Source of the DNA: a candidate division WOR-3 bacterium
GTDB taxonomy: Bacteria > Hydrothermota > Tepidihabitantia > Tepidihabitantales > Tepidihabitantaceae
Reading direction: 5' to 3'
NCBI GenBank assembly: GCA_965649205.1
Contig: CBFGJV010000020.1
Location: 1-40,446, forward strand
DNA: 40,446 nucleotides
Under the pieces are notes generated by a model. The model did not search any database. It worked only from the letters and a program-made list of their open reading frames with translations, and was not told the origin of the DNA. Every line of letters begins with the position of its first letter. Position 1 is the first letter of the stretch. Positions 14,946 through 25,032 of this stretch are shown here, piece by piece. Both the position numbers and the translations under genes were made by a program.

Positions 14946-15323
14946 ATATAAAACTTATAGAGGTGAAAAATGAAAAACATCCCCCTCCGCGCCGAAACCA
15001 GATAACTCCTCGCCCGCATCCGCACCGAAGAAAACCTCCTCAACCTTGACGACCTTGACTTACCCGACTCCAACTCAACCAATACCGTTTGGAACGAAAG
15101 AACTGCAATCGTGACAACAAGAGCCCGCGTGAAATACTGGCCGAGGTTGCGCCGCACGTGGACCAAACTATCCTCCTGCTGCCAGCACTCGACGAGTTGC
15201 TGGCGCTGCGGATATCATATGAGGCGTCCAAGTACGAAGCAAGGGGGCACGATGTACCCTGGCTGGCCCCGAAAGTCGGGGTTGCTGCTTGCCAGCAAGT
15301 TACCGCCTGGTAAGATAAGTCTT

Positions 15324-16217
15324 ATGCCGACCGTCGACAATCTCCGACGCCAAAAATCGTCCCTCCTTATCTCCATAGGCCTCAACCTCGGTTTTGCCTT
15401 GGCCGAACTCATCTTCGGTCTTGTCGCCAACTCGCTTCTGTTGGTAGCCGATTCTCTGCATGACGCCGGCGACGCGGTAGCTCTTGGCCTTTCCTATTTC
15501 GGTCTACATCTGTCCCAGCTAGCGCCGAGCCGTCGTCGGACGTTCGGGTACAAGAAGGTGCGTATTCTCACTGCCTTCCTCAACGCCCTGTTTCTCATCG
15601 GCCTTACCGGAATTGTCATTCGTGCCGCCCTCATCCGCCTCCTTCATCCGGAGCCGGTAAAAAGCCCACTACTTATTGCTCTGGCAGTAGCAGGTCTGTT
15701 CGTAAACGGACTCGGTGTTCTCATCCTGCGCCGGGACAGTCAGGCCCTTGACATTCGCTCGGCGATGTGGCACCTGCTGGAAGATTTCTTCGGCTGGATT
15801 GCAGTACTGGTCGGCGGCATAGTGATGAGACTCACCGGTTGGCACATAATTGACCCCATTCTGTCCCTTGTGGTCAGTATCTTCGTACTACGGGGAGCCT
15901 GGACTGTGTTCCGAGAATCTACCAGCATTCTCATTGACTCAACTCCCAAAGATTTATCCTTTGATGCGGTACGCAGTTTCATACTTGAATTTGACAAGGC
16001 CATCCTCGGCATTCACGACCTCCACATCTGGACTCTAGGACAAGGCCAGCGGGCCCTGATGGCTCACCTCATCGTGCCAGACCAGAACCTTTCCGACTTC
16101 TATCCGCTTCTCACCCGATTGGAATGTGCCTTGCGCGACAACTTCAGGATAGATCACGTCACTCTCGAACTGGAATGTGATCATTGCAAGTCTGGAGACC
16201 GGGTATGTCTCAAGTAA
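15324..16217 (+). CDS. Cation diffusion facilitator (CzcD/ZitB-like) transporter
   Basis: SLLLVADSLHDAGD, RTFGY, SAMWHLLED, DPILS, IHDLHIW, HVTLELE. Confidence 0.93.
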   Translation: MPTVDNLRRQKSSLLISIGLNLGFALAELIFGLVANSLLLVADSLHDAGDAVALGLSYFGLHLSQLAPSRRRTFGYKKVRILTAFLNALFLIGLTGIVIRAALIRLLHPEPVKSPLLIALAVAGLFVNGLGVLILRRDSQALDIRSAMWHLLEDFFGWIAVLVGGIVMRLTGWHIIDPILSLVVSIFVLRGAWTVFRESTSILIDSTPKDLSFDAVRSFILEFDKAILGIHDLHIWTLGQGQRALMAHLIVPDQNLSDFYPLLTRLECALRDNFRIDHVTLELECDHCKSGDRVCLK

Positions 16218-16245
16218 CAGGACGAAAGTCAGCCTGCGGCGGGCA

Positions 16246-17295
16246 CTATTCTGACTTTAGTGGTCTGATAGCACCGGTGCTATCCACCCTCGCATTCAGC
16301 GAAAGGGCAGACAGACTGCGGAATATGGCCTGCCTGCCGACCTGGTCTGTTTCCAACTCTGGTCTGAACATATGGATGCGACACGGTATAACCGTAGCCG
16401 AAACCAAACTGTCGCCTGCAAACGTCGTCCGCAGAATCATACTCGGCCGACCATCCCGATTAGTGAAAACGAAATTGCCCAGACTATAGGCGATCAGCTT
16501 GTCCTGGTAGAATTCAAAACCCCGCAGTACATGAGGGTGGCTTCCGACCACTAGGTCAGCGCCAGCTTCGATACAACGTCGCGCCAAGGCCCGGACATAA
16601 TCCTCCGGCTGGGTCAACTTCTCCTTGCCCCAGTGCAGATATACACAGACCAAGTCTGCGCTGTCCCGTGCCTCAGTGATGCGCTGCAAAAGAAGCCAAG
16701 GATCTAGACATCCAGCAACGCCCGGACTTGCTCTCCCTGCCTGCCACCCTGCAGGCACCACCCGGCTAAAACACAAAACCGCCACCCTTTGTCCCCCAAT
16801 ACTTACATACACCGGAGCCGCAGCGGCCGCAATATCTGCTCCGGCTCCACCAAAAAGCAGTCCAGTCGCGCGCAAATGCTCTAGCATCTCCAACATCGCC
16901 TGTTTGCCAAAATCTAAACTATGGTTGTTGGCTAAGGAAAGAAACTCGATTCCGTTTATGCGCAGACCGGGCAGAAGCACCGGCGAGGCCTGAAAAGTGT
17001 ACTCTTTTCCTTGCTCTGGTTGACCCGACCTTGACACCGAGCACTCCAGATTACCCACAGTCAAGCTATCAGCCAGAAGAGAATCCCTTACATCCGCCAA
17101 GACGTAATCCATTCCCCGCAATATACCTAATTCGCCGACAGACTGACCCAGATGGATGTCGCCCACCCATGATATCACTACCGGCGGACGGCTCTTCTCC
17201 GCTAGTAAAATAGAAGTATCAACTACAGAATCTTCTGTCCCAGCCAAGGCGAAACAGAACCCTAGCCCCAGAAGAACAAGTAGCATTTTCGTCAT
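16246..17295 (-). CDS. CapA-family metallophosphoesterase (PGA_cap), secreted
   Basis: Signal peptide; VGD, GNLE, LANNHSLDFG, LHWG.E, GADLVVGSHPHV, AYSLGNFVF. Confidence 0.9.
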   Translation of the reverse strand: MTKMLLVLLGLGFCFALAGTEDSVVDTSILLAEKSRPPVVISWVGDIHLGQSVGELGILRGMDYVLADVRDSLLADSLTVGNLECSVSRSGQPEQGKEYTFQASPVLLPGLRINGIEFLSLANNHSLDFGKQAMLEMLEHLRATGLLFGGAGADIAAAAAPVYVSIGGQRVAVLCFSRVVPAGWQAGRASPGVAGCLDPWLLLQRITEARDSADLVCVYLHWGKEKLTQPEDYVRALARRCIEAGADLVVGSHPHVLRGFEFYQDKLIAYSLGNFVFTNRDGRPSMILRTTFAGDSLVSATVIPCRIHMFRPELETDQVGRQAIFRSLSALSLNARVDSTGAIRPLKSE

Positions 17296-17406
17296 AGAAG
17301 ACAAGCCTACACAAGGTACTTCATTCTGCAACTGTCGCCGCCGTTCTCCGTCCCTTAACCGGCTAGTGTTGACACTACCTTTCTGCGTCCTATACTCGAA
17401 CTCCCG

Positions 17407-18462
17407 ATGGGCAACTGGCTAGTCTCCCTTGCTTGCCTCCTGGCCCAGCTTTCTCCTGTTGTCCCTCCTCCCAAGGACTCAGTTCGCCACGACGTAGGCA
17501 TAAGGGCTATCATTGAACCCGGTCCTCTGGTTGCTGCCGGTCACCCACTACAACCTGCTGTAGACGTCGTCAACCTGGGAACAGAAACTGAAAACTACTT
17601 TGATGTTCGCTTCCGCATTGACGGCCTGTATGACGAAATCCGTACCGTGGAAAGTATCAGACCCGGCACGAGTGTACGCGTGGTTTTCCCGGAATGGGTT
17701 GCTGCCGCCGGTACTTTCCTGGCCACTTGCTCTACCATGTTGGCCCGCGACTCCAACCCGACAAACGATACCGCCCGCTTGGTTTTTACCGCAGTGCGTC
17801 CTCTGCGCTTACAAGTGGGCGACAGCCTGTCTGCAACCATGCGCCGGAAAGAAACCAAAGATTTTATTTTCTATGCCAGATTATTGGGTGATACCGGGGC
17901 TACAGTTGATTTGGCTGCAACTTCCCCCCCGCCCGGCTGGACTGTTTCGCTACGTGACTCTACTGGCCGGCACGAAATAACCGGTCTTGGCCGACTCTCT
18001 CCCGGGCAGAAGAAGCAATTTCGCCTCCGACTCACCGCGCCCGATTCTTTCTCCTTGGGCCACTCCGCGCCAGATCCTGTTACGTTGGCAGTCCGCGCCT
18101 ACTGCCCGGGGGATAATTCTGTAGCAGACGAGGCTCATTTAGAAATAATTCCTATGCCCGACGAGCCGGACGTGCACAACTTTCCCAACCCTTTTCAGAG
18201 AAACACTGTCTTCCAACTGAACCTGCCTCAGGATGGCATCGTCAGCCTTACTGTTTATACTCGCGCCGCCGAACTTGTAGCTACCGTCATCCCCCGTCAG
18301 CGCCTGCCTGCAGGCTATCACTTCTTCTCCTGGGCCGGTCGTAACGACGCTGGTGAATTCATAGCGCCGGGCATCTACCAGTATCTTTTGGAATACTCCA
18401 GCCATGGCCGGACCAGCCGCATAATCAAAAAGTTGGTCAAGACCGCGGGGGCCTGGGAATGA
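17407..18462 (+). CDS. Secreted Ig-fold protein (CARDB-like) with FlgD/T9SS-type C-terminal domain
   Basis: HDVGI..I..P, V.NLG...E, D.NPTND; C-terminal HNFPNPF..NT.F..NLP..G.V.L.VY...W.GRND.G....PGIY. Confidence 0.75.
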   Translation: MGNWLVSLACLLAQLSPVVPPPKDSVRHDVGIRAIIEPGPLVAAGHPLQPAVDVVNLGTETENYFDVRFRIDGLYDEIRTVESIRPGTSVRVVFPEWVAAAGTFLATCSTMLARDSNPTNDTARLVFTAVRPLRLQVGDSLSATMRRKETKDFIFYARLLGDTGATVDLAATSPPPGWTVSLRDSTGRHEITGLGRLSPGQKKQFRLRLTAPDSFSLGHSAPDPVTLAVRAYCPGDNSVADEAHLEIIPMPDEPDVHNFPNPFQRNTVFQLNLPQDGIVSLTVYTRAAELVATVIPRQRLPAGYHFFSWAGRNDAGEFIAPGIYQYLLEYSSHGRTSRIIKKLVKTAGAWE

Positions 18463-19925
18463 AAACCGCCCGCAGCCAGTTGACGCCCCATCGTTCTTTT
18501 GTCTTCTTTCTGGTCTGTATCTTCGGCTTTTCGACCTTCGGTTTTTCTCTTCCTCCGCTCTCCTGGTACGGACCCGGCACCTCTGCGTTCTACCTGTTGC
18601 GGGTGGGTCAGAGTGTCCGGACTGCATCCCTGGCCGATGCCTCCCTGGCTTTGACCGGAAACGTCGGTTGCATCAGCTCCAACCCTGCAGGACTGGCAGG
18701 CATTTCCGAGTTCCAGTTTGCCTTTGCGCACCAGCAATGGCTTTCCGGTCCGAAAAATGAAGTAATTCACACTGCTCTGCCTACTCGTTCGGGCTGCTTA
18801 GGTCTGGGAATTACATACAGCGGTGATTCTGAGATCGAGGGCTGGGATGAACACAACCGCCCCCTACCTCCGTTCAACACTCATGAAGCCGCCGCTACAC
18901 TAGCCTATGGCGTGCGACTAAGCCATCCCGTCTGGGTGGGCTTCTCTGGCAAAGCCCTCTGGCAGAACCTGGCTGCACAATCTGGTTATGGAGCAGGCGG
19001 GGACCTGGGGATTTTCTGGCGGCTGCCGCGTTCATTCTCGTTGGGGCTGGGGGCTCGTAACCTTGGGCTGTTCTATCAGATGGACGAAAAATTTTCGCTT
19101 CCTTCCGAATTAGGACTTGGCATCAGTTGGTTCAGCCCCCGCTTCGCGGTAGCCACCGACTTCTTCTACCCTTTGGATTCGCGGCCGAATTTACGAGCGG
19201 GCATAGAGTATCTACCGTTCCGGCAACTGTCCCTGCGCCTCGGCTACCGCACCGGCCCTTCTGACATCACCTCCCTTGGCTGGATCGCAGGACTCACTAC
19301 CGGAATCGGTATCAATCTAGCCGGCTTCAGCCTTGACTACTGCTTCGCTTCCTACGGTAAACTCGGCCCTGCACACCACATCGGCGTAAGCTTTCGCTCC
19401 CACAGCATAAATCGCGGAGAATTACTCATCACCGTCACCGACGCTCAGACGCACGAACCCCTCTTGGCCAGCCTCTTTTTGTCTGGCGTAACCCAACTGC
19501 GAACCGAGACTAACTCTTCCGGCCAGCTCCGGCTCTCCTCGCTTCCTGCGGGCGTGTTGGTCATCCGCACCAGTCGGGAAGGCTACGAAACCCGCATAGA
19601 CACTATGGAAATAACAGGCCACTTTCCCCAGCGCGCCAATCTTGCTCTGTCATCGCTGGCGCGGGGAGAAATTTGGGGGGGTCTCTACGACGCCCAGACC
19701 GGTCGCACTCTCAGCGGTACCATATTCTACAAAGGTCCGCTATACGGGGAACAACAGGTTGATGCCAAACAAGGCAGTTTTGTGCTCAAGCATCTTCCTG
19801 TCGGCACCTATGAACTGACAGCTTTCGGACCCGACAGCACCTACTCTCCTCAGACCTGTACGCTGCCGGTGATAAAAAACCGCATCACAGAAAAACTCTT
19901 CTATCTGTATCGCTCTCCTCGCTAA
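18459..19925 (+). CDS. PorV/PorQ-family outer-membrane protein with C-terminal carboxypeptidase-regulatory-like domains
   Basis: FYLLRVGQSVR..SLADA..A......NPAGLA, F.H.QWL, beta-strand pattern, LDY.F..YG.LG..H; then ITVTDA.T.EPL.A and V.....GY repeats. Confidence 0.75.
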   Translation: MKTARSQLTPHRSFVFFLVCIFGFSTFGFSLPPLSWYGPGTSAFYLLRVGQSVRTASLADASLALTGNVGCISSNPAGLAGISEFQFAFAHQQWLSGPKNEVIHTALPTRSGCLGLGITYSGDSEIEGWDEHNRPLPPFNTHEAAATLAYGVRLSHPVWVGFSGKALWQNLAAQSGYGAGGDLGIFWRLPRSFSLGLGARNLGLFYQMDEKFSLPSELGLGISWFSPRFAVATDFFYPLDSRPNLRAGIEYLPFRQLSLRLGYRTGPSDITSLGWIAGLTTGIGINLAGFSLDYCFASYGKLGPAHHIGVSFRSHSINRGELLITVTDAQTHEPLLASLFLSGVTQLRTETNSSGQLRLSSLPAGVLVIRTSREGYETRIDTMEITGHFPQRANLALSSLARGEIWGGLYDAQTGRTLSGTIFYKGPLYGEQQVDAKQGSFVLKHLPVGTYELTAFGPDSTYSPQTCTLPVIKNRITEKLFYLYRSPR

Positions 19926-19980
19926 AGCCAAGTAACGCCAGGAAAAATCGCTGACTTCCTTCGCACAACACAATTTTATC

Positions 19981-20008
19981 TTGACAACAAAAATAGAAAT
20001 CATATTAT
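19981..20008 (+). promoter_or_regulatory. Sigma70-like promoter TTGACA-N16-TATTAT
   Basis: Near-consensus hexamers in AT-rich context upstream of the small ORF. Confidence 0.75.
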
Positions 20009-20034
20009 CACCCCGTAGCAACAAAGGAGGTCCG

Positions 20035-20097
20035 ATGGCGTGCGCAAAAAGCACCAAGAAGGTCGCTAAGAAGAAGGTCGCTAAGAAAAAGAAGTAG
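20035..20097 (+). CDS. 20-aa Lys-rich small protein MACAKSTKKVAKKKVAKKKK
   Basis: Strong SD AAAGGAGGT just upstream of the ATG; own promoter and terminator; below the ORF-track length cut-off. Confidence 0.8.
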   Translation: MACAKSTKKVAKKKVAKKKK

Positions 20098-20114
20098 CTT
20101 AGCGTCCATCTACA

Positions 20115-20146
20115 AGAGAGGGGCCAAGAGCCCCTCTCTGTTTTTT
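20115..20146 (+). terminator. Rho-independent terminator
   Basis: Perfect 10-bp stem AGAGAGGGGC/GCCCCTCTCT with 5-nt loop, followed by GTTTTTT. Confidence 0.9.
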
Positions 20147-20193
20147 CTTCCCGTTTCTTGACTTCGGCCTCCTCGCTTTTATGCTTCACCCCG

Positions 20194-22107
20194 ATGAATT
20201 CACTTGTTCAATCCTTCCGTTTGCACTTGGGTCGTAAGGAATACGACCAGCTGGATACTATTTGGCTCGAACTCATCGACCAGAATGTAGACACGGAGGA
20301 ACTGTTTGAACTGGTGGAACTCGTCGAGCGTTATGCCCCGGCTGGGAAAGCTGAGGAATTTCTCTGGATCCTAGCCGACGCCCTGAAAGCCAAGAAAAAA
20401 TGGGAGCCGCAGTTTCAAGCCCTGAAGCGCTTGGTGCGTCTGAGTGAGAAGGAAAGCAAGCTTGCCTCCGAACTGGCCGCAAACCTCCGTCAAAGTTATG
20501 GCCACGTGCCGGAGCTGGAAAAGCTGCTGCAGAAATCAGGGCTCACCTACGGTCAACCCTTGAAGCAGGCCCTCAACACCATGGAACGTTACATTCACCT
20601 GCTGCCCGGTTCCTGGCTCTACTGTACAGAATGGGGCGCATGTCGGGTGGCAAAACTAGACCTACTTTTAGGTCGTGTGACGGTCAGCTGTGCCGGTCTC
20701 ACCGAGTACACCCTCAATCTAGACTCGGCCCTAATGCGACTCCGCCCTTTGCCAGCCGGGGGATTTTTCCAGCGGTTGCATGAAAACAAAAACTCGCTCT
20801 TGCTCCTAGCCGAAGAGAATCCGGCTGAGCTGGTAGCCCTGTACCTCAGGGATACAAAGGAACCGGCTGGCAGTAAAGAATTGAAGTCGGCGCTGGCCGA
20901 GCTGGTCCCAGAACAGGCTTGGGAAGGATTCTGGAGCCGGGCGCGCCGGGAGCTGGAAAGCCACCCGCACGTGCTCGTGCGTACTCGACCGCAGAGAACA
21001 TACCAATGGTCGGATCAGCGCATACCTCGGCAAGAAGAAACCAGAACGCCCCCCAAGACGCCCTCGCTCAAAATCGAGCTACCTCCGCCGGAAGAAACTG
21101 CCAACCTGCCCGAACAAGAGCTACTCGAAAAATACAAGACTCTGAGTAATTCCGCCCAAAGACGCCAGCTGTTGGAAGCTGTGCTCAGAACTCGGCCCGA
21201 GCTTCTACCCCGATTGTTCGTCTCAGGTAAGGATAACAAGATACGCGCTTGGCTGCTGCGGGAACTGGAAAATACCGGTCAACGCCAGACGGTTTCAAAT
21301 CTCCTGGAGGCAACGCTTACCAGCTATCGCGAATACCCGGACGCCTTTCTCTGGCTGGCAGACTATGTTACTGACCATGCGCCTCACCTGACGCCGGCGG
21401 TGGTTACTCGTTTACTTGACCTGCTTGAATCTCAGACATTTCGCCGACGCTGGCCTGCCTTTGAGCACGCACTCGCCGCCCAAGAATACCGCCTGCTCCG
21501 AATTGCTCTAGAGACCCTCTCTGAACCGCAATTACGCGCTCTCTACTTACGTCTTACCCGGCTGCAGTCAATAGAAAACTTCCGCCAGGACGAAATCCGC
21601 CAGCTTTTCGCCGCTCGACTGCCCGACCTAGCTCGCCCCGAGACAGAGAACGTAGTTCTTTCGACCGCTGCCGGTATCGCTCGAGCAAAACAAGAACTGG
21701 CCAGACTCACAAATGAAGAACTCCCCCGCCTAGCCGAGGAAATCGGACGGGCTCGCGCCCACGGAGATCTGTCAGAGAACTATGAATACAAGGCTGCAAA
21801 GGAAAAACAGGCCAGATTGATTCAACGTATCAATCGTCTGCGCGCCGAACTTGCACAGGCACGGCCTATAACCACAGTAGATTGCTCTCAAGTTTCTGTA
21901 GGCTGTAAAGTAAAATTGATTGATGAAAACGGCACAACAGTAGAGTACGCTCTTCTTGGCCCTTGGGATTCTGACCCCGAACAAGGAATTATCTCCTACC
22001 TTGCTCCTCTAGGACAAAAACTGCTAGGACGTAAGCTGGGAGAATCGCTGGAATTGGAAGGTCGCATACACACCATCAAGGAAATTTCTGCCTTACCCCT
22101 AGTCTGA
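20194..22107 (+). CDS. GreA/GreB-family elongation factor with large N-terminal extension
   Basis: C-terminal T..G.....EL..L, ARAHGDLSENYEYKAAKE.Q, V.VG.KV, GPWDSDPE.GIISY.APLG. Confidence 0.88.
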   Translation: MNSLVQSFRLHLGRKEYDQLDTIWLELIDQNVDTEELFELVELVERYAPAGKAEEFLWILADALKAKKKWEPQFQALKRLVRLSEKESKLASELAANLRQSYGHVPELEKLLQKSGLTYGQPLKQALNTMERYIHLLPGSWLYCTEWGACRVAKLDLLLGRVTVSCAGLTEYTLNLDSALMRLRPLPAGGFFQRLHENKNSLLLLAEENPAELVALYLRDTKEPAGSKELKSALAELVPEQAWEGFWSRARRELESHPHVLVRTRPQRTYQWSDQRIPRQEETRTPPKTPSLKIELPPPEETANLPEQELLEKYKTLSNSAQRRQLLEAVLRTRPELLPRLFVSGKDNKIRAWLLRELENTGQRQTVSNLLEATLTSYREYPDAFLWLADYVTDHAPHLTPAVVTRLLDLLESQTFRRRWPAFEHALAAQEYRLLRIALETLSEPQLRALYLRLTRLQSIENFRQDEIRQLFAARLPDLARPETENVVLSTAAGIARAKQELARLTNEELPRLAEEIGRARAHGDLSENYEYKAAKEKQARLIQRINRLRAELAQARPITTVDCSQVSVGCKVKLIDENGTTVEYALLGPWDSDPEQGIISYLAPLGQKLLGRKLGESLELEGRIHTIKEISALPLV

Positions 22108-22123
22108 CAACACTTTCGCACTT

Positions 22124-22780
22124 GTGATACTACGCTTTGACCCCACTCATCCAGAATCTGATTTCATCGTCAAAGCCGCAAATATTGTCTCACAGGGCGG
22201 TACTGTAATCTTTCCTACCGAAACTGTGTACGGCATTGGCGCAGACCTCCGCGTCCCTGAAGCCATAAAAACTGTATTTCTTCTCAAACACCGCCCTCTC
22301 CACCAATCGCTGCTGGTACACTGCTCTCGGGTCTCGCAACTCACACTGCTGGTAACCGAAATCAGTCCCCTCGCCCGGCTTCTGATGGAAAAGTTTTGGC
22401 CCGGTTCCCTCTGCTTGGTATTCAAAGCCAACCCTGCTTTGCCCCCGACAGTCATCGGTCCAGGCCATACTGTCGGCATCCGTATGGTTGCTCACCCTGT
22501 AACCTGTGCACTCATAGACCAGATTGGCTCACCTTTAGCCGGAACCAGCGCCAACTTGCACGGACAACCCGCTACCAGTGATCCATCTCGGCTGGACCAG
22601 AATCTGCTCTCCCGCGTTGACGTAGTCCTGGACTCCGGAATCTGCGGAACTGGTAAGGCTTCAACCATTCTGGATGTTACGGTAGAACCGCCTCGTCTCG
22701 TCCGCTTGGGTGCGGTATCCTTGCGAGAAATTGAAGCAGTGATTGGTTACCGTCTACCGGTAAACCAGTCCAAAACTTAA
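22124..22780 (+). CDS. tsaC: L-threonylcarbamoyladenylate synthase (TsaC/Sua5/YrdC)
   Basis: FPTETVYGIGA, LK.RP, FWPG.L, TVGIRM, TSANLHG, STILD. Confidence 0.9.
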   Translation: MILRFDPTHPESDFIVKAANIVSQGGTVIFPTETVYGIGADLRVPEAIKTVFLLKHRPLHQSLLVHCSRVSQLTLLVTEISPLARLLMEKFWPGSLCLVFKANPALPPTVIGPGHTVGIRMVAHPVTCALIDQIGSPLAGTSANLHGQPATSDPSRLDQNLLSRVDVVLDSGICGTGKASTILDVTVEPPRLVRLGAVSLREIEAVIGYRLPVNQSKT

Positions 22781-22787
22781 CTGTCTC

Positions 22788-24386
22788 TCAGTAACGGTAC
22801 TCAACCTTCAAGCCAAAATCCAGTCCTGTCTTATTTTGCCCGATAACTCCCTTATGATTCTGGCTGGACCAGAACCATAACGCGACTGAAAGATACAAGT
22901 CCTGCAAGACGTACAGTTCCATCGTTGGCCCCAGTCGCCAAGTCTTATCCACCTCCTCAATAACCGTATCCGGCTCCGCACTTACATCCCACCCTCGTGA
23001 AGGAAACTCAGTATGGTGTCTCAAGTAAAGGGTATCATCTGGATTCTTGTAGCTCTTCCGACGATAGTCTCCCCGATTATGGTAGCCTCTGCGTGTAAAA
23101 TCAGCCGCCAGATTGAACTGAAGTTTTGCCGAAGGTATGAGACTCGTCACAAGCAAAGCCTGGTCTGCATCCGGTCCCAGCGGATGACCCAAAGATGCCC
23201 CGTAGTTGTCATACAGGAGCGAATGAATGTGATTATAGTAGGTAAAAGGCATGATGCGGGTATATTCCAAACGCCAGGCAACCGGCAGATTCGGTGCCCA
23301 ATACAGTCCCATTTGAGAAGCAGTAGCATTAGGTGCACTTCTGCGGGCATTAAACTCATAGTTGTCCAGAAACAGCTGCGCGTACAACTTCGTTCGAGGG
23401 AGGTATAACACTGCATCCCATCCCACTAGAAAATTCCCTTCATGACCGCTATTCGCTTCGGTGAAGTAGAGAGGAATGAGTGGATTCAATAGTCCGCCCA
23501 ACTGGCTGGGTTGATACTCATCCCACGAGGAAACGGCCAACATAGCTCCTCCTAGGGTCAACCGCTGAGCAAAAGACAATTCCAGCCGCTGGCCAGCGAG
23601 CAAACGCTGTTTCAATCCCCAGCGAGAAAGCAATGACACAAAAGACAAGAACTTAAAATTCTGATAAGAAGCAGATAGCTGCAAATGATCCAAGGCGGCA
23701 GCCGCGTCCGACAGCATCACCGACCCGGAATACCCCGGACCCCAGACAAATTCATCCCGACCCAGCTCTAGGCGCAACCAGGGAATCTTAAATGCCAAAT
23801 ACGCCAACTCTGTCTCCAATGTCACTCGATTCCTCCAGGGAAGCACCCGTTTTCCTGGTATGTGTCGGCCGGCAGAATCCCGCACAATAGATTCTTCCAG
23901 TATCGGCGGACGCCAAGCTGTGAACTCAAACTTTTCGTAGAAGGCGAAGACGTCTCCCGGTCGGTTATTCACCACTCCACCTACCGACAACCGCTGCGTA
24001 TCTCTATCCGCCAGCAGCCCAGAAAAACCATCCCCCTGTACAAAAGCATCAGCCAGACCGGGCACAGCTACATCCATCGGTTTTCGGCGTCGAGGCTTCC
24101 CAGACGCAGACCCGGCGAGTGCTTCGGAGAACTCGCTCCGCAGACGCTGTAGCGCACCAAGTTGGCCGGGCCCCGGTTTGACAATGGCCGCCACCGACTC
24201 TGCTTCGTCCACCAACCGCCTCACCTCGGCCCGGGTCCAGGGCTTACTGGTAGAAGGCAATGAAACTATGAAACCAGAAGTCTTGAGCAGGTCCAAGTCC
24301 CGATAGAACCGGGAACTGAGGGGCAAGTTCTCTAGACTGGCAAACCCCAAGGCACACCAAAGCCAGCTCAACAAAAGGATGCGCAC
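22788..24386 (-). CDS. Wzi-like (capsule assembly family) outer-membrane beta-barrel
   Basis: Signal peptide, helical N-terminus (KPWTR.E), GRD...WGPG.SGS..LSD, LGH.LGPD, terminal VEYRY aromatic strand. Confidence 0.75.
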   Translation of the reverse strand: MRILLLSWLWCALGFASLENLPLSSRFYRDLDLLKTSGFIVSLPSTSKPWTRAEVRRLVDEAESVAAIVKPGPGQLGALQRLRSEFSEALAGSASGKPRRRKPMDVAVPGLADAFVQGDGFSGLLADRDTQRLSVGGVVNNRPGDVFAFYEKFEFTAWRPPILEESIVRDSAGRHIPGKRVLPWRNRVTLETELAYLAFKIPWLRLELGRDEFVWGPGYSGSVMLSDAAAALDHLQLSASYQNFKFLSFVSLLSRWGLKQRLLAGQRLELSFAQRLTLGGAMLAVSSWDEYQPSQLGGLLNPLIPLYFTEANSGHEGNFLVGWDAVLYLPRTKLYAQLFLDNYEFNARRSAPNATASQMGLYWAPNLPVAWRLEYTRIMPFTYYNHIHSLLYDNYGASLGHPLGPDADQALLVTSLIPSAKLQFNLAADFTRRGYHNRGDYRRKSYKNPDDTLYLRHHTEFPSRGWDVSAEPDTVIEEVDKTWRLGPTMELYVLQDLYLSVALWFWSSQNHKGVIGQNKTGLDFGLKVEYRY

Positions 24387-24399
24387 CAGAACGAGCCGA

Positions 24400-25032
24400 C
24401 TATTGATGAATCACTCCCAACCAGTCTCGCAACAGGAACTGCAACCGACCAATAAGGAGCGACATACGGGCCATAACCGTGTAACCGAACGAAGCTCCAA
24501 ACCCGACCATCAGAAATACGATGCCGACCTCAGACGCAAGCTTCAGCGCACCTTTTCGCTCCCTTGAGAAAAAGAAGTAAAAAACCGAGCAGATAACGCC
24601 GACAAAAGAAATCAACCCCCAGAGCAACGCATCCCAGCGAGAGAATAGAGCAGGGGTCAACAAAGTGCCCTGAATCTGCTTCATGATGTTCGCCTGGAAA
24701 AATGCGGGTATAGCCACGCCAGAAGCCCAGCCCAGTACAAAAGCCATGGGAAAACGCACCAGCCAAGAAACTTGAGGAATAAACCGACAGAAATAGCACA
24801 ACCCCAGTACAAAGGGAATAATGTAAAGTAACTGTCCCTGGCGGAAAAGCGGAGTGATAAGGTCCGGATACACCGCATTGTACCAAGTCAAAGAAATGGA
24901 ATAACCAACTGAAACCCCCACGAACAAGTGCTCGCAAAACTTGTAGAAAGGGTTGTCCTTCCACAAAAAAGAGAAAATGCCAAAAGTAAGAATGACGGCA
25001 ATCCAGGTCAAAATATTAGTTGAGATATGCAT
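24400..25032 (-). CDS. Uncharacterised integral membrane protein (~6-7 TM)
   Basis: Hydrophobic; LT..IFSFLWKDNP.YK..EH.FVG and FLM.GFGA.FG.TVM.R.SLL..RL motifs; operon context. Confidence 0.85.
   Translation of the reverse strand: MHISTNILTWIAVILTFGIFSFLWKDNPFYKFCEHLFVGVSVGYSISLTWYNAVYPDLITPLFRQGQLLYIIPFVLGLCYFCRFIPQVSWLVRFPMAFVLGWASGVAIPAFFQANIMKQIQGTLLTPALFSRWDALLWGLISFVGVICSVFYFFFSRERKGALKLASEVGIVFLMVGFGASFGYTVMARMSLLIGRLQFLLRDWLGVIHQ

Follow-up and report, generated by a model that had tools for sequence, protein, structure and literature searches.

Which gene, if any, lies in the short interval in front of greA on this contig of a WOR-3 bacterium, and what might its product do? The window, i.e. 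the whole stretch of 40,446 nucleotides that was analysed, contains at this place a compact unit whose reading frame comprises only 20 codons. Its elements and their immediate neighbours are as follows:

18459–19925 (+): upstream gene (context), with a UPF0164-like N-terminal part and a carboxypeptidase-regulatory-like domain
19981–20008 (+): sigma-70-type promoter TTGACA-N16-TATTAT, 11 of 12 consensus matches
19981–19986 (+): -35 element TTGACA
20003–20008 (+): -10 element TATTAT, separated from the -35 element by a spacer of 16 nt
20023–20031 (+): Shine-Dalgarno sequence AAAGGAGGT, 3 nt 5' of the ATG
20035–20097 (+): 20-codon ORF plus stop, MACAKSTKKVAKKKVAKKKK; an M-A-C head followed by pentamer-like repeats of Lys, Ala, Val and Thr
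20041–20043 (+): codon of the conserved Cys3, which is found in 51 of 56 family members
20056–20085 (+): tandem 15-nt duplication, which gives two KKVAK units
20115–20149 (+): intrinsic-terminator-like hairpin (stem 20115–20139) with a T-rich tail
20158–20185 (+): promoter-like site of greA itself (context, outside the unit), of the leaderless type, 8 nt 5' of the greA ATG at 20194

The encoded peptide contains 10 Lys and neither Asp nor Glu, which results in a net charge of +10. The stem of the hairpin is made up of 10 pairs, seven of them G-C, and the T-rich tail follows it. Promoter, Shine-Dalgarno sequence, ORF, a doubled repeat and the 10-pair hairpin had all been named in a preliminary description of this DNA, and each was found in its place. 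That description had also ranked these expression signals as the strongest in the window; the rank was checked for positions 15000–25000, where a promoter at 17369 matches the consensus equally well (11 of 12). On the opposite strand, an ORF of 149 codons (19740–20189 of the window) overlaps the unit. It is probably a shadow ORF, whose Phe/Leu-rich middle mirrors the Lys codons.

The combination of features is rare within the genome of 2.15 Mb. Among 679 ORFs of 8–70 residues that are preceded by a Shine-Dalgarno sequence, this is the only one with a Lys content above 22% (50%), and among 45 combinations of promoter, Shine-Dalgarno sequence and start codon genome-wide it is the only one with a product of 10–86 residues. 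Terminator-like sites as a class are not enriched (10 found, compared to a mean of 11.1 in shuffled sequences); the weight of the hairpin therefore rests on its conservation. The 16-nt spacer is the preferred one in this genome, with 190 TTGACA-N16-TAnnnT sites versus 56 with a spacer of 17. At 80 of 338 sigma-70-type promoter sites, an ATG that opens an ORF of at least 80 residues follows 5–11 nt downstream, which suggests that the genome has many leaderless mRNAs, greA among them.

The downstream gene codes for a GreA of 637 residues (20194–22107). Approximately 490 of these precede the GreA domains and gave no Pfam match above the cut-off; this long form is conserved across the order. The preliminary description had pointed to the DNA upstream of the long greA as the place where relatives might carry the unit. 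This neighbourhood is not shared: in 29 loci from relatives, no Lys-rich micro-ORF led by a Shine-Dalgarno sequence occurred within 1.5 kb of greA. As judged by eye and uncounted, the DNA upstream of the relatives' greA is variable, and in most cases the gene is served by a separate promoter that lies a few bases 5' of the start. With a KKxAKK pattern, the unit was traced to other places in 26 of 61 genomes; some of the matches are other proteins. The UPF0164-like upstream gene or a paralog precedes it in several relatives. According to HMM searches, the downstream ORF is Mfd in all six same-order loci inspected, and other genes are found downstream at three more distant or second-copy loci.

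A census was then anchored on mfd: no motif filter was applied, and the upstream DNA was read genome by genome. Of the 66 genomes of the order, 62 gave an Mfd match; three of these loci are cut by contig ends, which leaves 59 assessable genomes. In 55 of these, the unit of promoter, Shine-Dalgarno sequence and ORF lies directly upstream of mfd. The other four are the source genome, in which the unit precedes greA and mfd is located on another contig, and the genomes G220, G222 and G049, in which the promoter and a Shine-Dalgarno-like site are retained before mfd and the ORF and the hairpin are gone. A search elsewhere in these three genomes gave no Cys-bearing Lys-rich copy; each carries a Lys-rich gene of 17–19 codons that is devoid of Cys. 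The micro-gene can be lost locally.

The start of mfd often lies approximately 35–50 nt 3' of the ORF stop, which leaves no space for a promoter. Because of this proximity, and because the promoter outlasts the deletion of the ORF, the link is most simply read as promoter sharing: mfd would borrow the promoter of the micro-gene by read-through, and no joint function would be involved. The same order of a Lys-codon-rich ORF, a terminator and a close mfd start, together with the three genomes that dropped ORF and hairpin yet retain the promoter, could also be expected of a leader peptide through which transcription into mfd (here greA) would be attenuated in response to Lys-tRNA supply or ribosome coupling. 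We regard such an attenuator as highly improbable, given that the stem begins anywhere between about 4 and 20 nt after the stop, that no consistent antiterminator was seen (the 5' arm is 0.20–0.91 unpaired in 16 units folded with no shuffled control), and that selection acts on Cys3 and on residues other than Lys. Moreover, the unit stays intact before unrelated genes, greA is served here by a promoter of its own, and mfd is unrelated to lysine. Its expression signals are kept in many gene contexts; mfd, greA, tyrS, a gene for NFACT and others are found downstream. A precursor of a ribosomally synthesized, modified peptide (RiPP) is not supported, since the conserved neighbours are housekeeping genes and no adjacent modifying enzyme or transporter is conserved. 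A membrane toxin or antimicrobial was rejected on composition, as the peptide has no hydrophobic segment or export signal.

For the analysis of the family, 56 complete ORFs were used: 53 of the 55 linked to mfd, the one from the source genome, and two at contig ends; the two mfd-linked ORFs left out contain an N gap or a contig break. The peptides have 17–86 residues (median 22), and their length is set by the number of repeats. On average they consist of 49.6% Lys, 17.5% Ala, 9.1% Thr, 5.9% Val and 4.6% Pro, with 0.3% acidic residues, and are nearly free of Arg and of hydrophobic residues. The pN/pS value is 0.136 for 77 within-genus pairs and ranges from 0.00 to 0.29 across 11 genera; these pairs are non-independent, and the repeats make the alignment uncertain. 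Selection acts on the product and not on the RNA alone. A promoter of the TTGACA/TATTAT type precedes 54 of the 56 members, with a spacer of 16 nt in 47 cases, a Shine-Dalgarno sequence is present before the relatives' ORFs, and a hairpin of -10 kcal/mol or better follows 53 of them. In 15 of 24 folded units, the Shine-Dalgarno sequence is less than 50% unpaired (range 0.00–0.97, no shuffled control). The claim of a stand-alone gene is thus borne out: it is conserved, selected, and resembles an H1 tail in composition.

The preliminary description had singled out the only Cys of the peptide, and rightly so. Cys3 is kept in 51 of 56 members, following Ala (MAC, 32 members) or Pro (MPC, 19 members), and is encoded by TGC in 30 and by TGT in 21 cases. 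A second Cys occurs in six of the 56 members. Five primary members have no Cys, and many short second copies are Cys-less, too. All five Cys-less primary members have at least 37 residues, and 49 of the 51 with Cys have at most 31. A general rule that Cys compensates for short length was nevertheless not adopted, because the five represent two genera and there are many short paralogs devoid of Cys. Tandem arrays of micro-genes were also seen, in which a Cys-bearing copy is followed by one or two Cys-less ones (L340, L137, L338, L279, G010:C49); in G010, two matches to the Cys pattern lie 1.2 kb apart.

The family is covered by no family in Pfam, NCBIfam or the PDB. A phmmer search with a 45-residue member gave 5086 candidates and none at E≤0.01. 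Exact look-up in a collection of 15 billion proteins found none of 15 peptides; a 31-residue bS22 used as control was equally missing, so that short ORFs must be under-represented there. Members of 52–93 residues are missing as well, whereas ordinary proteins of 68 and 76 residues are present. The ESM Atlas contains one member of 31 residues, in unnamed clusters; HC2 is annotated on 22% of the members of the nearest named cluster (score 0.85), which is a lead only. A literature search by titles and abstract beginnings, with subscription journals and bioRxiv supplements outside its scope, found no description of the family. Small-protein catalogues (e.g. 10.1101/2024.11.08.622638) may hold members without a name.

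Among known proteins, the closest likeness is to the H1-like proteins Hc2 of Chlamydia, BpH1 of Bordetella and those of Burkholderia, which according to PMC2848022 consist of basic pentamer repeats with Ala, Val, Thr or Pro spacers and without acidic residues, change in length by gain or loss of repeats, and can be dispensable, as is BpH1. The Hc2-type proteins described there condense DNA and also bind RNA. Known members have approximately 150–240 residues, as opposed to 17–86 in the micro-peptides, which differ furthermore in their denser Lys (50%), in the conserved Cys3, and in a charge above the two per five of Hc2. The members of 86 and 66 residues match the hist_H1_lk_Burk and Hc2 models with E-values of 1.7e-4 to 0.09. 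All these matches are weak, lie far under the cut-offs and may be compositional; for example, the 86-residue member reached 19.6 bits (cut-off 40) for PF07382, 18.7 (135) for NF038052 and 21.9 (80) for NF038053, the last being the highest score within the order. The 20-residue peptide itself gave no match to Pfam or to the H1-like models. As even the long members match so weakly, the micro-peptide would at best work like an Hc2-type protein without being a member of that family.

Other systems share single traits. The winged-helix globular domain of canonical linker histone H1 is absent from a low-complexity peptide of 20 residues. H1-like proteins that lack this domain, i.e. kinetoplastid H1 and the 91-residue TgH1-like protein of Toxoplasma, also consist of a small basic tail rich in Lys, Ala and Pro, and function on chromatin according to PMC9769792; they are eukaryotic, nucleosome-linked and four times as long as a typical micro-peptide, and the likeness is drawn from their description only. 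Protamines and the E. coli Tpr, a "small protamine-like protein", are likewise very short polycations. Protamines are rich in Arg, whereas the micro-peptides are rich in Lys, and Tpr is encoded within the tyrT transcript and not by a stand-alone gene; these, too, were compared by description only. Tpr is listed in PMC3141248, and PMC5122968 reports that basic proteins of sperm are cross-linked by disulfides. The C-terminal KPAA repeats of Pseudomonas AlgP and PhaF are disordered, contain Lys, Pro and Ala and bind polyanions (PMC11894788), but they belong to larger proteins, as tails behind a folded N-terminal domain, whereas the micro-peptides are free.

Size and charge are compatible with a small basic protein of the ribosome as well, one that would occupy a pocket in the rRNA or take part in hibernation in the manner of bS22, bTHX or eL41, and the preliminary description had offered a tiny ribosomal protein as an option. 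The bS22/mS38 proteins (AURKAIP1/COX24 domain) are tiny and very basic, and in the WOR-3 phylum they start with M-P-C-G, which resembles the M-A/P-C head of the micro-peptides; descent from a copy of bS22 is possible. In addition, tyrS and the NFACT gene are among the conserved neighbours in other lineages, and the TgH1-like protein associates also with ribosomal proteins (PMC9769792). Nevertheless, identity with bS22 was rejected and the ribosomal option as a whole is weakened. The source genome has its own 31-residue bS22-like gene at C6:95473, right after HU (G000:C6:95179-95568). bS22 contains Arg, His and Leu and is fixed in length and sequence, with 31 residues that are identical in eight of eight genomes of one genus, whereas the micro-peptides vary between 17 and 86 residues with their repeats and occur in tandem and second copies. 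The bS22 of the phylum matches the solved chain 8fmw_V (E 4.3e-6) and found six PDB chains; the profile of 45 micro-peptide sequences found none at E≤10. A role on the ribosome is, in our judgement, unlikely.

A peptide that lacks sequence-reading features could also bind polyphosphate or another non-nucleic polyanion, or buffer charge in place of polyamines, in condensates such as those of AlgP; the latter, which carries H1-like repeats, localises to polyphosphate granules (PMC11894788). This is quite unlikely, as the genome, which is 98% complete, gave no match to PPK1 (PF02503), and the folded N-terminal domain of AlgP is absent from the micro-peptide.

With moderate confidence, we favour a minimal, free polycation for nucleic acid that is similar to an H1 tail and, as a miniature Hc2 or BpH1, would serve to condense the nucleoid or to buffer it. 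Judged from the sequences, binding of DNA by charge is likely and binding of RNA probable, and the product is likely to be abundant and unstructured. The near-consensus signals would ensure strong constitutive expression, and the lysines would neutralise the charge of nucleic acid in a non-specific manner. The H1-like composition proposed in the preliminary description holds, and condensation of the nucleoid is a prediction. Composition alone does not distinguish DNA from RNA, the ribosome or polyphosphate as the target.

Removal of Met1 by methionine aminopeptidase depends on residue 2. All 51 WOR-3 members with Cys have Ala or Pro there; Met1 is therefore presumably removed, which would leave an Xaa-Cys N-terminus. 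Its thiol would be made reactive by the neighbouring lysines, and peptides might be joined by a disulfide or by a shared metal ion; we propose that by such linkage a peptide of charge +10 would gain the properties of a longer polycation that can be switched. This role of the N-terminal thiol in cross-linking or metal binding is the less certain part of the proposal, and the reducing cytoplasm speaks against stable disulfides. Synthetic oligolysines of 20 residues condense plasmid DNA, and Cys residues installed in them stabilise the complexes by disulfides, with resistance to release once these have formed (PMC9096824); this work may serve as no more than a chemical precedent for thiol-linked condensation.

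The conserved thiol can be given more weight than the Lys tail. The peptide would then handle thiols or metals, with an Xaa-Cys site (often CxxC or CxxxC) that binds Zn, Cu or Fe or is modified, and the tail would be a tether to nucleic acid or to the membrane. Cys is indeed the most conserved residue; a second one occurs, besides the six WOR-3 members, in all 28 peptides of the Nitrospirota-labelled class described below, and in the order Lys-rich tails are fused to a Cys domain similar to desulfoferrodoxin-N. Most members, by contrast, have a single Cys, Cys-less versions with complete expression signals are common, and no modifying or metal-handling gene is found among the conserved neighbours. 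This makes a dedicated thiol or metal handler very unlikely.

Head and tail of the micro-peptide are also found on other proteins. The head M-[A/P]-C-x-K starts bS22 and one uS15 and does not point to DNA alone. It occurs, moreover, on a winged-helix protein of 76–79 residues in 17 of 272 genomes of the phylum, which belong to three families. In these 17 genomes the Lys-rich pattern gave no micro-peptide, which counts in favour of a nucleic-acid binder; the complementarity extends to the three families only, and many other families show neither. The winged-helix protein (L091:1513-1746, L314:200-427, L380-L391) matches the Sso10a family weakly, often has its own promoter and terminator, and is a candidate chromatin protein. 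An acidic protein of 76–77 residues likewise begins with M-[A/P]-C, and its gene is preceded by a promoter of its own (L097 in G158; L318:1510-1737 in G161); the one of L318 gave no match in Pfam or NCBIfam. Lys-rich tails are fused to the desulfoferrodoxin-N-like domain in proteins of 57–68 residues (L392:651-854, minus strand; L036:1495-1665), which unites a polycation and a thiol site in a single chain; the domain of L392 passes the cut-off of 23 with 24.5 bits. An enzyme of 415–435 codons with a Lys-rich N-terminal tail (G000:C4 near 56231, minus strand; L045, L050-L053, L058) is presumably similar to asparagine synthetase A. GGGtGRT proteins in Kiritimatiellae and Verrucomicrobia records (L174, L181, L198) start with M-A-C and a two-Cys, Lys-rich tail.

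How far does the family extend beyond the order? A pattern of Shine-Dalgarno sequence plus MACxK matched 49 times, in 48 of the 272 genomes of the phylum, compared to nine times for the reversed control, and 40 of the 49 are Lys-rich micro-peptides. A Cys-free pattern matched 128 of the 272 genomes; 19 of 20 places fetched contain stand-alone Lys-rich peptides of 13–93 residues, with or without Cys. A scan of GTDB that forced Cys yielded complete peptides at 22 of 119 loci among the matches listed, three of them already known. The remaining complete peptides carry the record labels Edwardsbacteria, Nitrospirota, Acidobacteriota, Deltaproteobacteria, Krumholzibacteria, Syntrophorhabdaceae, Thermoguttaceae, Elusimicrobiota and Thermoplasmata or belong to unnamed records.

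As an independent test, tyrS was used as anchor in the class of the Nitrospirota-labelled genome; 51 of 64 genomes matched, and the best 30 loci were read. Without recourse to any motif, a Lys-rich peptide of 21–32 residues was found in 28 of these best 30 loci. In all 28, Cys3 follows Ala, Ser, Gly or Pro, and two or three Cys are present; Cys3 is thus seen again in a class independent of WOR-3. Among 201 genomes of Thermoplasmata, a motif-free pattern matched six, five of the six peptides being Cys-less and only the seed containing Cys. Five viral loci have such ORFs, three of them directly before a DUF2213 gene (assigned by HMM for one). In phage-like contexts, MAC-K ORFs of 11–17 residues were seen (L418, L420, L421; also L136, L141, L206, L229), which lie before the DUF2213 gene, after a gene for a phi29 tail knob, or before an M23 peptidase; these are possible DNA-packing peptides of the virion. 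Sequences this short do not discriminate between shared ancestry and convergence of these lineages. It is a tentative idea, which we hold with considerable doubt, that an overlooked prokaryotic class of protamine-like genes of 13–30 residues exists in several bacterial phyla, archaea and phages, and that its Xaa-Cys members condense DNA under the control of redox state or metal ions. Such peptides would polymerise on the nucleoid via their N-terminal thiols and be released upon reduction.

In summary, the unit before greA is a real gene for what is probably a novel, minimal kind of H1-like basic protein with a cysteine tip. Pfam, NCBIfam and the PDB thus lack a gene that is under selection, occurs almost throughout the order and has expression signals close to consensus. 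Should its product coat nucleic acid, a whole size class would be missing from the known chromatin proteins of prokaryotes, one that would escape both trypsin-based proteomics and gene callers. The family is also relevant to the proposal that linker histone H1 had its origin in a bacterial lysine-rich DNA binder. If the reading as a thiol-switched condenser is true, the micro-peptide would be the H1 tail in its minimal, free-living form, and the cysteine-cross-linked protamines would have a bacterial counterpart.
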